A DNA stretch of 64,000 nt from IMG/VR virus record IMGVR_UViG_3300023060_000001, positions 65,543-129,542 of that record, one strand, 5' to 3'. Each line of letters begins with the position of its first letter. Position 1 is the stretch's first letter. The translations under genes were made by a program, and so were the position numbers. Below, in pieces: positions 56,139-62,383 of the stretch. The notes beneath the pieces were generated by a model. That model made no database searches and was not told the DNA's origin. It was given only the letters and a program-made list of their open reading frames with translations. The stretch comes from a virus. Taxonomy: Duplodnaviria > Caudoviricetes.

Positions 56139-56813
56139 TTACAACAGGGTCTCATTTTCCTCATTTAAACTTTCTAAAAGTATATTTGCATGAAGAATTA
56201 ACCCTTTCTTAACACGTTCATCCTCTTGCTCATTGGAAACTTTTAGGATGAGTGCGTGTTTGTAGGTGACGTAGGCTTCATATGCGAGTTGTTCTGTTGG
56301 GAATGAGCCTAGTTTCTTCTGTTTACCTGCCCCATTTTTGCATTGTGCTTGAAATTTTCCGGTGGCTTTACGAAAAGACACGCCTTGTTTATACTTACCT
56401 CTAGATTTACCATTGTCCGATAACAAGGTGTTAACCTGCCTACTAACAAAAACACAGGTTTGAGGAGAGTAAACCTTATTGTTAGGCAGGATTATATCCT
56501 TATCCAGTTGCTTCCCCTCCCAATCTTGTTTCTCCATCCACGATCTGAAGTTAGAAAAGGTATGCCACTCTTCACAAATGGTTACATCCTTATAAGTTGT
56601 GCGTGTTTCTTTGTATTTTTCAGAATACCCTCTCTCCACCATACTCTTCCATCTTTCGTAGTAAGGGCACTTATAAGTTTTACCCTTATTATCACGATAA
56701 GATATCTTGTATTCCGCATCGTTGATACCAACCCCACGTACCAACTTCCTCCTAGAAAGGCTCTTCTTGCTAGCAGTCACCATCGGAAACTCAAATTCTT
56801 CTTCTTCTTTCAT
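56139..56813 (-). CDS. Free-standing HNH-type homing endonuclease
   Basis: TYKDVTICEEW..FSNF..W, QLDKDII...YSPQTCVFV...N; AP2-like GVSF. Confidence 0.82.
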   Translation of the reverse strand: MKEEEEFEFPMVTASKKSLSRRKLVRGVGINDAEYKISYRDNKGKTYKCPYYERWKSMVERGYSEKYKETRTTYKDVTICEEWHTFSNFRSWMEKQDWEGKQLDKDIILPNNKVYSPQTCVFVSRQVNTLLSDNGKSRGKYKQGVSFRKATGKFQAQCKNGAGKQKKLGSFPTEQLAYEAYVTYKHALILKVSNEQEDERVKKGLILHANILLESLNEENETLL

Positions 56814-56814
56814 G

Positions 56815-58116
56815 TTAACTTTCCTTTACAATATAACAGTTATCACTAAAGCCTAACACGTATTCATAAGCCTTGTGCATAGTTTCCTTCAATTCTTTTT
56901 CCTTTTCAACGGTGCATCTAAAATCATCATGGACTTGAATCACTAATGTTTTATGGTTTTGAATCATACTATCAAGAACAAAATCATTTATTTCAGCTCC
57001 GACATTTTGTACACAATAACCCCTGTGACTACTAAAGAAAACTTCAGCTATCATATGGTGGTGATCTAGCATTATTTCTATCACTTCTGCTGTAGGTATC
57101 ATTTTAGAAGGGATTTTACCCTTTTTGTAAAGGTTCTCCAGATCCATGTTCTCACTTATCCACATGCTTAAAGCTCTCTTGGCCTGTGTTATGTTATCAC
57201 AATTTAAGCAGATTATGAATACAGCTTTGGCTAATTTACGGGCAGTTTTAACTTCATAACCTTTTTCGTGTAAAACCTCTAGTGTATACGGATCACCTTC
57301 CATAATCTCTTGTTTAATAGAATACGCGATAGATGGTTCAAAACCTTTGTAGTCGTAACAGCAGGTCTCCTCTCCGCCAATCACCACTTCATCTCTCTTC
57401 TCTCCATTTAACCTTTGATATTCACTAACCATTATAGACCTCCCACCGTGATCAAAATCTCTATTAAATACTTTATAAATTTGTGCATCTAATCTTGTAT
57501 CTCTGAAAGTAACTTCTACTTCCCTACTAAATTTATTGTATCGGTTTACATAATCAACTTTTTGTCTTGTTACTTCGTTAGTTCTGTAAGTTTTATCTTT
57601 TTTATTACCATGTGTATCTTCTTCTCTTAATATTAACACGTTATCTAAAGCATCAAAAGTGTCAGGTTTGGAGACATACTTATCGTATAAAGTTTTTAAT
57701 TTATCATTTACCTTGAAGTAACTTCTAGAAAATACAGTAGCTACCCATTGCTTATCCACAAAACCATAATCTTCAACTTCACCTCCCACAGTTAAATCTC
57801 CGTAATCTTTCTGATTTAAAAATTGGAATAGAGCTTTGGTGTAGGTATAACTAACTTTTCGTTTAGTATCTCGCCCATTAACTATAATCTTTTTGGAATA
57901 GTTTGTCTGGTCTAAAGTTATACCAAAAGTATCTCTTTTTGAAATGATACTTTTATTAAGGTTCAGAACGAAACATCCGACAGAAGCTTTTATAAGTTTT
58001 CTTTTATTTTCTGTTAACTTTACAAAATTATCCTCTAAATATTCTTCAAAATCCCTTACCAAAACCTCCCTTAATTTGAATAAATATTTAGGTATTTTGT
58101 GGTCTATCTTATACAC
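56815..58116 (-). CDS. Minimal family-A/T7-RNAP-superfamily polymerase-like protein
   Basis: HGGR, motif A CYDYKGFEP, motif B RKLAKAVFIICLN, QNVGAEI, motif C QVHDDF; no exonuclease motifs seen. Confidence 0.7.
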   Translation of the reverse strand: MYKIDHKIPKYLFKLREVLVRDFEEYLEDNFVKLTENKRKLIKASVGCFVLNLNKSIISKRDTFGITLDQTNYSKKIIVNGRDTKRKVSYTYTKALFQFLNQKDYGDLTVGGEVEDYGFVDKQWVATVFSRSYFKVNDKLKTLYDKYVSKPDTFDALDNVLILREEDTHGNKKDKTYRTNEVTRQKVDYVNRYNKFSREVEVTFRDTRLDAQIYKVFNRDFDHGGRSIMVSEYQRLNGEKRDEVVIGGEETCCYDYKGFEPSIAYSIKQEIMEGDPYTLEVLHEKGYEVKTARKLAKAVFIICLNCDNITQAKRALSMWISENMDLENLYKKGKIPSKMIPTAEVIEIMLDHHHMIAEVFFSSHRGYCVQNVGAEINDFVLDSMIQNHKTLVIQVHDDFRCTVEKEKELKETMHKAYEYVLGFSDNCYIVKES

Positions 58117-58246
58117 TTAAATCACCTCCGTTACACCCGCTTGTTTTTGTTATTTTTTATGAGTATTCAAACACTTAAATATCAATCTCCTTGTTTTTTC
58201 TCTTATAGGAGGGACTCCTACCGCAGAGAAGCGGAATACAACATCA

Positions 58247-60288
58247 CTACTCCTTCTCAATAAATGTAATAACATCTTCTAATAATTCTACCTTATCTTC
58301 TCCAGCATTCTCTGTAATATAGACATCCCCGTTATGATACGCCACCCATTCTAGATCGTTATCTAAATCTAAATAAAGAGTATCCCCTCTCATATCTATT
58401 TTATGTGTATAATCTATCAACTTCAAAACCATCTCCTTTTCCTAACAATATAATACAATTATACCAGTCATTTATTCTAATAGGAAGCCGTCTAGACGTC
58501 TAAACCAAACACCACCCACAAAAACACCCCGCCCCAACCCTGAATCATTCCCACAAGGATAGTCTTTGAGAAACTTGAATACCACTTCTCACAATACCCT
58601 CTCATCCCAAGGAAATCCACTTTCAATAAAATGAATAATGTCACAAGGTTTACCACTGGACACCAGAATAAGAAGGTTTGGGTGAATTGTTTTATAAATT
58701 TATTCATCTACACTTCTCCACATAGTATTCTCTACCATTTTTACAAATGTTATCCTCTTTGAAGTAAACCCAACTGTAATCTATTTCCATAAACCCATTC
58801 AAATCATAATCACTATCTTCTAAATCGGTTAGAATATTCACTAGTTTACCCTCGCCCATCGCAGCAAAAGATATAACTTCATCACCCACAGATAATAACT
58901 CCTTCCAATTATCCAAAGTAATCCTTGTTAAACGTGATTCCGCTCTCTCACAGCCATTCTCAGAAGATTTCTCACTCTCCGAAGGTGATTGCATAGGTGA
59001 AGTGTTATCGTTGCTCACAGGGGCTATTTCAGAGCTATCCTTACGTAGCTCAAATGTGATCCCGTTTCGGATACAAGTGTCGATAAAATCCGCCATAGTG
59101 TATTCCTCTGCGGAAAGAAGAATACTTTTAGCGTTGCCACCCACTTGTGTTAAAAGGGATTCCAATTTAGAAATTTCTAATTCTTCTAAAGTGGGAGTAC
59201 TTTTGTACATGTTATTGATTGTTTGCATAATGTTATTCTTCATCTCGTAACCACCCTACAGTTAAATTTACCAACCCAATACCGATATTACACAAGCTCA
59301 GTGTGTCAACTTCATATACACAGCCCATCATACCAATACCTAAACACCACCCACCAAAAGAAATCTGCCATTTTGACCAATCACTCATATTATTCCCCCC
59401 ACCAATTTATTTAAAATTTCATTACGATAAGCATAATCTTTCAACTTAGAGAAGTCAACCTTTAAATCAGATAATTCTTCCAATAAATCACCACTTAACC
59501 CAAGAAGGGTTTGTTCTAACATTCGTTTACTTTCAAAAGTTTCCTCTTTCTTAATGTAACCTTTCCAAAATGAAATGATTTTATCCTCAGGGAATTCCTC
59601 TGTGAATAAGTCTTTTGGAAAGATAAACCTCTTTGTGTCAGCGTAAGATTCATAAGGTTCAGTGTAGATTAAATTAACAATAATGTTCTCTCCTGTTTTC
59701 TGAGTACCCTCAATCACATAATGTGAATAAGATTCAAAATCATCTATGTCATCCAGTGTGTTAATTATTCCGTATATCCTATTATGTAATTTATTTTCTG
59801 AATTGAAATAATCTTCAAGCATATTCATAAGTTTAACTCCTCTTCTAAAACTTTTATCATGTAGTCTTTTAATTCTGAAACAGATATTGTACCAAAAGGA
59901 GAACAGTATAAAGAATCACCACTTTCCTGTAAGGCTCGGTTACTTTTGTCATGTTCCTCTTTAAAATGGATTAGCATCTTCTTGAGAGCTTTATACTCTG
60001 TCATGTTGGCCTCTTTCTTAGGAGGTTTACATCTAGGCATAGGTAATGTTTGCATAATTATTCTCCTTCCCAACGGCTGGTAAACAATTCATCAATATAA
60101 TCTTCCCATTCTTGATGGTAATTTGTAGGCTGTTGTTTATTACTTTGCATAAAGTTATCAATGCAGCAAACACCTTCTTCTTTCAACTCTTGTTTACATT
60201 CATCGCAAAGGTATTCATTGCGTTCATGTGACACATTATCACACATAATATTCTCACAGCCATTTCTATCGCAAGCTAGTACGCCCAT
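58247..60288 (-). other. Run of hypothetical genes (58247-58432, 58492-58707 membrane, 58704-59243, 59385-59828, 59825-60073, 60058-60288 Cys-rich)
   Basis: Coupled leftward ORFs. Confidence 0.65.
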
Positions 60289-60402: not shown

Positions 60403-61317
60403 TTAAAATTCTAACCAAGGATTACCTACATTCACAACATTCAAACCTAAATCATACTTGAACATTCGTGAAACTGTAGGACGGTCATCTAATACAAGTT
60501 TCACATTGTAATTATGGTTTACATACTTGTTAAACAATTCTTTCTTGATAATAGTGTCTTTTCTACAATCACCCTGTGGGCGCATGTATAAATGGAAGTG
60601 ACCTTCCAATTCAGGGAAATACTTTTCAATCCAAAGTTGAGTATCTTCCATGCAAATAGAATCTCTCCCTGACATAAAGATAGGAACATAACCTTCTGCA
60701 ATAAGACCTTTTGCCATATGAATAATTTCGTAACGAGGAAAATCTTCTCCAACTTTATCCCATTCAAAAGGAGAGCGGTTGTGCATAGAAGCCAACGTGC
60801 CATCAATATCTAGTATTACCGCAGAAGGAACATCTTCTTTATTAGGATCATGCCAATTCTTCTTAAGGAAGCCGTCTGCGTAGTTTTTATATTGAGAAGT
60901 GATAACCTTATACCCAACACCAGAAAACCTCTTAGCGTCCCTCTCAAGGGATTCTAATAGGTCAACATGAAACACCTTCCCCTCAAAGGTATAATTCTTT
61001 AAACAACCCCACGTTTTAAAGTAATCTATATACTTTGGGTTAAGGTTGGTATCACTTATGATAATATTCTTACCCTTTTCAGTGGCATCTTTGATTAAAT
61101 GATGTTGCAACTCTGTGACTAATGCTTCATTACCTTTTGTGAATTTGTACTTACTCCAATCAATAGTTCCTCCTGTGAACAAGAAACCTCGGATGTCATC
61201 ACGATTGATATTAACCCAAGAATTCTTATTGTTCCCTTGAGAAAGGAAGTCATTAACCCAAGTGGTCTTTCCTGAACAACTAATACCTACTGTATAAATA
61301 AGTTTCTTACTTCTCAT
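60403..61317 (-). CDS. pseT: Polynucleotide 5'-kinase / 3'-phosphatase
   Basis: GISCSGKTT, NRDDIR, ISDTNL; HAD DIDGT, SGR, DDR. Confidence 0.93.
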   Translation of the reverse strand: MRSKKLIYTVGISCSGKTTWVNDFLSQGNNKNSWVNINRDDIRGFLFTGGTIDWSKYKFTKGNEALVTELQHHLIKDATEKGKNIIISDTNLNPKYIDYFKTWGCLKNYTFEGKVFHVDLLESLERDAKRFSGVGYKVITSQYKNYADGFLKKNWHDPNKEDVPSAVILDIDGTLASMHNRSPFEWDKVGEDFPRYEIIHMAKGLIAEGYVPIFMSGRDSICMEDTQLWIEKYFPELEGHFHLYMRPQGDCRKDTIIKKELFNKYVNHNYNVKLVLDDRPTVSRMFKYDLGLNVVNVGNPWLEF

Positions 61318-62383
61318 CTAAATTCTCCAATGTTGCCTCTAATAACTTAATCTTATAAGAATCTTTTAGATTATGCAACACTTTTAAAGGACAAACTCCA
61401 CTATTTCTTGCTTGGAACATGACACCTGAATAAAACACTTTATTATTAAGTGCAAATTCCTTTTTGTCTGTGATGCCTTTAGTTTTATTAAACTGAGTAA
61501 TACATAATGATTCTAAAGTATTCCATGCTGATACGAAAGGTGTGAAGTATTCCTTATCCTCAGGAAACACTGCTAAGTACTCATCTAGTTCCCTTATTAC
61601 AACTAATTCCTTAGCACGTTTAGGTGATAACCCTTCTCCTTTTAATCTATGACCTATGAGGTACTGAGGAGATTTGACCTTCACAACAGGGATTCCCTCC
61701 TTATAACCAACATAACCTTCTTCTAAATTTGGTAGGTGTTTTAAACTTTCCATACATTCTTGTGTTGTATTAAAAGAGTATTTTCGTGGAAGGTGGTATT
61801 TAGTTGTAACAATTTCCGAATAATCCCCACTAAGGTTATGTCTAATTGCTAAAAGGTAAGCTCTGTCCTCAAGGTAATTAACCACAACACGATTCTCTCT
61901 TCCAACTATTTCAAAGATGTACGTACAAGACTTATCCAAACCTTTCATGTTGTCCCAATCTAAAGCAGATTCTATTAAGTCTTTCCAAGTGCGATCCCAT
62001 CCTTGAACAGATAGTAATGGCATTAACATACTCTTGGTACGATACATCCAACCATATGGTTCACAATAGAATACACTTATCAAACTCCCATCCACCTTTT
62101 CGTAAATGGTTAAATCTTCGAGTTCAAAAGTTATATCGTTTTCTCCTTGGTTGAAGAATCTATCAAAAGCACGACTTACCACAGAGTATGTTACACCATC
62201 TAATTCTTCTTTTATTACAAGAGATCGACACTCTCGTACAATAGGATGATTTTTAGGTGAATCTATTTGGTTATAATTTAACACTCTTAGGTTAGGAAAC
62301 CTTTCATCAACAGAAACTTTGATTGAAAATTCCTCTACTAATTTTTCTAAACCATATTTGTTCAAATATTCTAATACTTTCAT
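61307..62383 (-). CDS. rnlA: RNA ligase 1 (T4 Rnl1-like)
   Basis: ECRSL, AFDRFFN, EKVDGS, FEIV, EEGYV, KVKS. Confidence 0.9.
   Translation of the reverse strand: MKVLEYLNKYGLEKLVEEFSIKVSVDERFPNLRVLNYNQIDSPKNHPIVRECRSLVIKEELDGVTYSVVSRAFDRFFNQGENDITFELEDLTIYEKVDGSLISVFYCEPYGWMYRTKSMLMPLLSVQGWDRTWKDLIESALDWDNMKGLDKSCTYIFEIVGRENRVVVNYLEDRAYLLAIRHNLSGDYSEIVTTKYHLPRKYSFNTTQECMESLKHLPNLEEGYVGYKEGIPVVKVKSPQYLIGHRLKGEGLSPKRAKELVVIRELDEYLAVFPEDKEYFTPFVSAWNTLESLCITQFNKTKGITDKKEFALNNKVFYSGVMFQARNSGVCPLKVLHNLKDSYKIKLLEATLENLDEK

Follow-up and report, generated by a model that had tools for sequence, protein, structure and literature searches.

A covarying double hairpin upstream of divPolA2-family polymerase genes in Caudoviricetes phages, a candidate site of enzyme binding or initiation

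Why should the gene of a minimal family-A polymerase be preceded by two abutting hairpins, and does the polymerase act on them? The question is raised by a 64,000-nt stretch of viral DNA (the window), which covers the right half (65543-129542) of a marine phage genome that is complete at 129.5 kb and carries direct terminal repeats (G000; IMG/VR record IMGVR_UViG_3300023060_000001); the nearest cultured relatives of this genome are the Pseudoalteromonas phages PH357 and J2-1. A first-pass annotation of the window had described a 433-amino-acid (aa) protein with polymerase motifs A, B and C and no exonuclease, preceded by a template-strand hairpin with a GGA loop (hairpin A) beside a second stem (hairpin B), and had proposed a hairpin-directed primase or miniature RNA polymerase working at a cognate site. 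We confirmed both hairpins, which sit 90-118 nt upstream of the GTG start codon (coordinates of all features are collected in Table 1), and we identified the protein as a member of divPolA2, a family of divergent PolA proteins. The explanation that we favour, with a probability of roughly 40%, is that the element serves the divPolA2 enzyme as a strand-specific DNA stem-loop site for binding or initiation.

The significance of the element rests on comparative data rather than on the window itself. Upstream regions of close homologs were gathered from metagenome contigs and phage records, comprising 11 distinct loci of the query's own clade (clade 1; 66-97% protein identity) and a second clade of the PH357 copy 2/L007 type (clade 2; ~50%). 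Hairpin A was retained in 11/11 clade-1 loci with stems that were altered but still complementary (TAGGAG, TAGTAG, TTATAG, TTGTAG, TAATGAG and TAATGGT), and the CCGC/GCGG stem of hairpin B was present in all clade-1 loci except L030, one relative having CCGT/ACGG instead. The loop of hairpin B is enlarged to ~25 nt, with an inner hairpin, in PH357 copy 1, PH357 copy 2 and L007. An alignment of nine equal-length sequences had 90 of its 90 cells paired; four pairs had been altered in both partners and none in a single partner, and its covariation score was reached by 0/500 shuffles; sliding the partner reduced pairing to 18-53% (15-56% over the nine- and the 13-sequence alignments). When 13 sequences were aligned to the model, 122/122 cells were paired, again with four two-sided and no one-sided changes, all of them Watson-Crick without any G-U pair, a count that is flattered by the fitting of this alignment to the structure and in which the absence of G-U is uninformative because there are too few transitions. 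We conclude that the stems are kept by selection for pairing. Since a double-stranded operator would conserve sequence, conserved pairing implies a folded single strand or a cruciform. The co-conservation of hairpin and homologs that the first-pass annotation had named as a check was therefore found, complete with compensatory changes.

The element is also tied to the gene in whole genomes. A covariance model of the element (R1) gave five matches in four complete genomes of 130-142 kb (~540 kb in total), one each in G000, G001 and G002 and two in PH357, and 5/5 lay 45-150 nt upstream of a divPolA2 gene, so that within these four genomes the element occurs only beside divPolA2 genes. PH357 encodes two divPolA2 proteins (68% and 50% identity to the query), each gene with an element of its own, and the two elements differ in the stem of hairpin A (TAATGAG vs TAGTAG), which fits paralog-specific recognition. 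R1 had no match in phage J2-1, where a terminator-like hairpin stands beside the homolog instead. An element-first scan of IMG/VR with a 19-mer returned five matches, two of which adjoin divPolA2 genes, including a new locus, L059; the three that lie away from divPolA2 genes, two of them identical, are probably unrelated or chance hairpins. At L058 (5018-5036) and L062 (6873-6891), the hairpin TAGTAG-GAA-CTACTA is part of a 10-bp GC-clamped stem in viral contigs of high GC content, whose retrieved 11 kb contain no divPolA2 gene.

An alternative explanation is that the element has nothing to do with polymerase activity and is an intergenic structure that synteny keeps in place, such as a factor-dependent terminator or insulator, an operator for a different phage protein, or a recombination or homing hotspot. 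Its position would suit this, as it sits 13-25 nt past the stop codon of whichever gene lies upstream, and in several phages the polymerase gene has homing endonuclease genes as neighbours. Hairpins of this size are, moreover, at chance frequency genome-wide: perfect hairpins with 6-bp stems and 3-nt loops numbered 52 in the 129.5-kb genome vs 54 ± 6 in Markov simulations, and the same 15-nt hairpin is found in the unrelated GC-rich contigs that lack a divPolA2 gene. Against this, a terminator scan of 55.5-60.5 kb was empty and neither strand has a T-run after the hairpins. Whichever gene lies upstream (an open reading frame (ORF) of 61, 124 or 152 aa), the polymerase gene keeps the element, R1 matches nothing else in the ~540 kb, and each of the two PH357 paralogs has its own copy. 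We therefore regard retention by synteny as unlikely. GGA/TCC loops were not enriched among the 6-bp triloop hairpins of the 129.5-kb genome and, given the chance-level count, the idea of a genome-wide promoter family was dropped. The 15-mer of hairpin A occurs only once in the window, and a composite-pattern search of the phage's own genome found the element in single copy.

The orientation of the element relative to the gene is not fixed. We refer to the strand that carries the pyrimidine-rich flank, hairpin A with a G-rich loop, hairpin B and then AATA as the E-strand, which is the (+) strand of the window. The E-strand is antisense to the gene, with the GGA-type loop on the template strand, in the query's clade and in L059. 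In PH357 copy 2 and L007 a homologous element lies ahead of the gene with its E-strand as the sense strand. Its Smith-Waterman scores were 43-46 as reverse complement (shuffled null 18 ± 2.5, maximum 29) and 15-25 in the same orientation; one such reverse-complement alignment sets GTTTTGTCTTTTATAGTA-GGAACTACTACCGCTAT against GTTTTGTCTTCCATAGTAGGGGACTACTA-CGCTAT. The sense-oriented PH357 copy 2 element also has a pyrimidine-rich flank. The L059 protein belongs to clade 2 (65% identity to P0012) yet its element is antisense, and both orientations thus occur within one protein clade. Sense-strand hairpins with the loops GGA, GGGA, TAGG or CAGG lie 42-79 nt before the start codon in Vibrio phages P018-4/R16F, 1.187.O, 1.101.O, 5P1c and S4-7, and likewise in the contigs L008 and L011. 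By a motif definition that is strict but post hoc, a pyrimidine-flanked hairpin with a GG-containing loop was present within ≤120 nt upstream in 6/16 further lineages vs 0.011 expected per lineage. That the element is conserved in both orientations speaks against a role requiring its presence in the sense mRNA.

This bears directly on the possibility that the element acts as RNA, a leader or intercistronic fold that would control translation or stability of the polymerase mRNA, possibly through autogenous binding. Phage T4 offers a precedent for such an RNA operator, as gp43 and gp32 bind their own mRNAs. Covarying stems are typical of RNA elements, and the sense-strand hairpin found 42-82 nt before the start in PH357 copy 2, L007 and at least six further lineages is where an RNA operator might be expected. 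The window has an extended -10 sequence (TGGTATAAT; 58466-58458, (-) strand) before the 61-aa ORF (58247-58432), so that transcripts starting there would cross the hairpin element into the polymerase gene and the element would be placed inside the transcript. No strong sigma-70 site was found between the element and the gene in a sigma-70 scan; a spacer motif in that interval, AAGTGTTTGAA, is possibly the -35 region of a promoter. However, the antisense, covarying element of the 11 clade-1 loci and L059 would put complementary loops and flanks into the sense RNA, and an RNA leader does not explain the conservation in this antisense clade unless an antisense transcript exists. Further observations speak against a function as RNA: Rfam has no match in 57900-58700, and both hairpins lie clear of the ribosome-binding site. 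The 122 paired cells also hold no G-U, although transitions are too few for this to be informative. As single-stranded DNA (ssDNA), the two-hairpin fold is the minimum free energy (MFE) structure on both strands (-7.5/-7.2 kcal/mol; z -2.8/-2.9), whereas RNA parameters give an MFE structure in the window with another pairing, TTCTCT/AGAGAA, which we rejected as it is not conserved among the relatives. Regulation through an RNA fold appears rather doubtful to us, although it and retention by synteny are both serious rivals of a DNA site.

The flips in orientation also weigh on the mechanism that the template-strand hairpin first brought to mind, a promoter like those of the phage N4 virion RNA polymerase (vRNAP), from which a miniature RNA polymerase (RNAP) or primase would start at C58202 towards its own gene. 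The arithmetic of the first-pass annotation was correct, with the loop centre G58213 at -11, +1 on C58202 and a product GAGAAAAAAC, and so was its remark that the closing pair differs from N4. N4 promoters need a closing 5'C:G3' pair, a loop with 5'G and 3'A, a purine at -11, G at -10, G at -8 and C at +1 (PMC4496689). The window has the 6-bp stem, the 3-nt loop, G-G-A on the template strand and the C at +1, and GGA or GAA loops occur in 8/11 clade-1 variants; the polymerase core is as near to T7 and mitochondrial RNAPs as to DNA polymerases (DNAPs), with N4 mini-vRNAP itself at a structural Z of 8.4, and ICP1-like phages have no annotated RNAP (PMC9040626). On the other hand, the flips mean that a promoter of this kind would in many lineages point away from the gene and run antisense to the co-oriented genes upstream. 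The loop is closed by G:C (-9/-13 = G/C) and not C:G, position -8 is A and not G, C at +1 was present in only 3/9 clade-1 variants checked, the loops GGTT and AAC also occur, and the element is single-copy per gene in clades 1 and 2 and does not form a promoter set. The Glu at motif A D+5 and a motif B that apparently lacks the Tyr of T7 RNAP would likewise be at odds with an RNAP. While the link between hairpin and polymerase gene has held up, an N4-type promoter is highly unlikely given the flips, the closing pair, positions -8 and +1 and the copy number.

What kind of enzyme is encoded beside the element? The 433-aa protein aligned with the published divPolA2 representative AUR84708 (MG592441.1; phage 1.063.O) at 33.9% identity over residues 2-432 (tblastn, E 5e-60), and it matched phrog_4756 at E 2.7e-115, a PHROGs family listed there as of unknown function; a Pfam search had zero matches at E ≤ 1, and a profile search of its family against PDB sequences gave one match only, which was spurious. 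According to the divPolA2 section of 'DNA polymerase swapping in Caudoviricetes bacteriophages' (Virol J 2024; PMC11348598), the family was recognised first in ~110 Rheinheimera barbaviruses and later in other Caudoviricetes, with up to three paralogs per genome in addition to the regular DNAP and in a variable neighbourhood, and its members have a palm that looks active, lack an exonuclease and carry a globular N-terminal domain that replaces the canonical thumb. The query shares this homology, the palm motifs, the lack of an exonuclease and the N-terminal domain in place of a thumb, and it likewise is additional to a regular PolA (PF00476 match in a 792-aa frame, C1:14375-15148) and has a paralog. 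It is a new member of this already described family. In a full-text literature search divPolA2 appeared only in PMC11348598 and its preprint, so that we found no functional work on the family, and the divPolA2 section of that paper mentions neither a gene-linked two-hairpin element nor winged-helix likeness nor an ICP1 homolog near the theta origin. The family comprises 7150 cluster representatives at E ≤ 1e-3 and occurs in phages of Vibrio, including the cholera phage ICP1, Aeromonas, Rheinheimera and Pseudoalteromonas, with Rheinheimera phages providing 115/206 phage records that matched the query. The second paralog of the query's own genome is remote (L005; G000:C1:58629-59624, (-) strand, outside the window; 27% identity to the 433-aa protein), has D-F-R-Q-M-H as motif A and W-H-D-S as motif C, lacks the upstream hairpin element and lies ~2 kb from the genome's main divergent-transcription point (~61.5 kb).

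The predicted structure agrees with a polymerase, as the first-pass annotation had it. An AlphaFold2 model built from 21 homologs (predicted local distance difference test (pLDDT) 90.3; predicted TM-score 0.81) contains a palm and fingers core of the family-A fold, and Foldseek matched the model to this fold with probability 1.0 and E 2e-5. VIA Z scores of the core against DNAPs were 14.8 for apicoplast Pol (9qsc_A; root mean square deviation 3.8 over 235 residues), 14.2 for Aquifex Pol I, 13.4 for Klenow and 12.2 for T7 DNAP, with Pol nu within 12-14, and against RNAPs 13.9 for yeast mitochondrial RNAP (mtRNAP), 12.7 for T7 RNAP, 8.4 for N4 mini-vRNAP and 7.8 for N4 RNAPII. In the model, DNA and RNA polymerases of this fold thus match the core about equally. 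No exonuclease domain is present, the N-terminal domain being separate and the polymerase matches beginning at residues ~151-176. In an alignment of 21 sequences, motif A reads C-Y-D255-Y-K-G-F-E260-P-S, motif B R293-K-L-A-K297...N305 and motif C V-H-D397-D, with D255, D275, R293 and K297 (RxxxK), N305 and D397 invariant; E260, at motif A D+5, is His in three distant members, and N305 sits at motif B R+12. The D-Y-x-x-x-E of motif A would correspond to DYSQIE of Klenow, in which the Glu is the steric gate, and the invariant Asn of motif B would stand in the place of Tyr639 of T7 RNAP. These correspondences are putative, and an hhalign comparison of the divPolA2 family with the phages' own regular PolA did not find a relationship. 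If they are right, motif A leans towards use of dNTPs. Modelled alone, the N-terminal domain drew nearly all of its top VIA matches from winged-helix proteins (Nse1/3, eS19, CodY, MarR/SarA and the ORC/Cdc6 winged helix) at Z 5-6.2, with Foldseek E ≥ 0.085, and we tentatively describe it as winged-helix-like.

Taken together, these observations are consistent with the following mechanism at the DNA level. The divPolA2 enzyme, which the phage has in addition to the regular PolA, would join a small N-terminal domain, possibly a winged helix, to a minimal family-A core of palm and fingers whose catalytic residues are intact. Its cognate nucleic-acid site would be an element of ~50-75 nt in which hairpin A (6-7 bp, loop usually GGA or GAA) stands between a pyrimidine-rich flank and the abutting, GC-clamped hairpin B. 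When single-stranded, either in a replication intermediate or through supercoil-driven extrusion, one strand would fold into the two stem-loops, and the enzyme would bind this folded strand and start or prime synthesis there. Gene and element would then form a module resembling 'rep-ori', rather than an N4-style promoter for transcription of the gene itself. One functional analogy is the stem-loop of OriL, where POLRMT primes. A second is offered by the template-strand hairpins that N4 vRNAP reads as promoters (PMC4496689).

A number of points weigh against an initiation site on DNA. The stems are short (6 + 4 bp, ~-7.5 kcal/mol as DNA), which makes extrusion from duplex DNA doubtful, and most lineages have the element on the sense strand, 42-79 nt before the start codon, the position of an RNA leader. 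GC skew follows gene orientation and gave no origin signal. A comparable hairpin is absent from ICP1, 1.063.O, L033, L013, L014, L037 and the remote paralogs; not every element has a pyrimidine-rich flank, those of L018 and L059 not being T-rich; and the compared lineages are related, so that the association statistics overstate their independence. The winged-helix assignment is weak (Z ≤ 6.2). The family itself is known by computation alone and is described in the divPolA2 section of PMC11348598 as "repair DNAP or RNAP".

A bolder version of the DNA-site explanation, which we consider rather unlikely, is that divPolA2 proteins are hairpin-directed initiator polymerases in which the N-terminal domain of each paralog would read its own two-stem-loop ssDNA signal and lay the first primer. 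If true, gene and element would mark where replication starts or is primed in ICP1-like marine phages, for whose origins no initiator is known. The ICP1 homolog (L002; MW794152, 57744-59048; 27.5% identity) is a Prodigal annotation that carries no earlier gp name, and ICP1 is stated to encode no RNAP (PMC9040626, PMC13595925). As the theta origin of ICP1 has been mapped, with a resolution of 1 kb, 'near the 60 kb position' (PMC7145576), the homolog (57.7-59.0 kb) lies within ~1-2 kb of the coverage peak of theta replication, which is suggestive but only a lead because ICP1 does not have the hairpin. A gene for a HigA/Cro-type helix-turn-helix (HTH) protein precedes the ICP1 homolog, as it does in Vibrio phages 249E41-1 and 1.187.O. 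In PLE-like satellites of other Vibrio species, a RepA_N or 'DNA Pol I domain' protein occupies the position of the replication initiator (PMC9410903), an independent indication that a minimal PolA protein may act as an initiator. In either version, a covarying hairpin linked to the gene is a concrete candidate substrate, which makes the choice between DNA polymerase, primase and RNA polymerase directly testable.

Table 1 Features of the polymerase gene and its upstream double hairpin, in coordinates of the 64,000-nt window.
Feature	Position	Strand	Basis
divPolA2-family gene, 433 aa, GTG start	56815..58116 (including stop codon)	(-)	ORF list and phrog_4756 match
Family-A polymerase core (palm and fingers), residues ~151-433	56818..57666	(-)	VIA, Foldseek, invariant residues
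N-terminal domain, residues ~1-150, small alpha/beta, tentatively winged-helix-like	57667..58116	(-)	Domain-alone model, pLDDT 85
Conserved spacer motif AAGTGTTTGAA in the interval between element and gene	58166..58176	(-)	By eye in clade-1 upstream regions
Pyrimidine-rich 5' flank CTTGTTTTTTCTCTTA	58190..58205	(+)	Similar flanks (GTTTTGTCTT...) in most relatives
Hairpin A, TAGGAG-GGA-CTCCTA	58206..58220	(+)	Sequence; stem covaries in relatives
Hairpin B, CCGC-AGAGAA-GCGG, abuts hairpin A	58221..58234	(+)	Sequence
Conserved 3' flank AATAC/AATAT	58235..58239	(+)	AATA invariant in nine-sequence alignment; also L059

The genes around the polymerase are of mixed character. An HNH homing endonuclease gene with an AP2-like DNA-binding region (56139-56813, (-) strand; phrog_953, E 7e-89) begins at the polymerase stop codon; it is kept in L017, L018 and L026, replaced by a 69-aa ORF in L020, and the same downstream slot holds GIY-YIG and winged HTH genes in Vibrio phages. 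The notion that this downstream gene encodes a partner resembling a single-strand-binding protein was rejected, as the product is the HNH endonuclease. On the other side, 60403-62383 ((-) strand) encodes a polynucleotide kinase/phosphatase (PF25109 and AAA_33) adjoining a T4 Rnl1-type RNA ligase, the classic phage tRNA-repair pair.

How does the candidate pair of enzyme and site compare with known systems? The first-pass annotation had likened the protein to TV-Pol, which has been proposed to prime DNA synthesis, as has been shown for CcPol-MP (PMC2579912, PMC10061031, PMC7581432). At the level of the minimal core a loose resemblance holds, since the query has a nuclease-free core with D255 and D397, the fingers Asp D275 and R293-x3-K297. 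The linkage that marks TV-Pol is missing: no D5-like helicase and no all-helical N-domain with a resolvase, integrase or transposase accompanies the query, whose neighbours are the HNH gene, small ORFs, the kinase/phosphatase (Pnkp) and the RNA ligase, and the family to which it belongs is divPolA2. The N-terminal domain is also unlike those of TV-Pol and CcPol-MP, and the genome is that of a lytic-type phage of Gammaproteobacteria and not an integrative element. In contrast to CcPol-MP, the gene downstream of the query does not encode an OB-fold partner, and there is no helicase or recombinase nearby.

Similar to N4 vRNAP, the query combines a family-A fold with a 5-7-bp stem and a 3-nt loop that is often 5'-G-R-A, and in the window a C stands at '+1'. 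It differs in size (433 aa vs ~1100 aa for mini-vRNAP), in a DNAP-like motif A and in a fold similarity that reaches only Z 8.4, and its element occurs once per gene, in variable orientation, with a reversed closing pair, without the G at -8 and without a conserved C at +1. Read in the sense of the gene, the 3' arm of hairpin A and its flank (CTACTATAGAAGAC or CTACTAGGGAATAAA; L028, 843-873, (-) strand, and other clade-1 loci) resemble the SP6/T7 promoter core (CACTATAGAAGA, TATAGGGAGA), a tentative likeness that conflicts with the orientation flip.

A functional parallel to a DNA initiation site may be found among single-subunit RNAPs: mitochondrial RNAP at OriL and T7 RNAP at the T7 primary origin start synthesis at a stem-loop beside T-rich ssDNA. 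These are full-size RNAPs with promoter-binding N-terminal domains, whereas the query is minimal, and yeast mtRNAP is among its best fold matches (Z 13.9). If the link between gene and element is real, divPolA2 would be a further family-A polymerase that reads nucleic-acid structure, and at 433 aa a minimal one.

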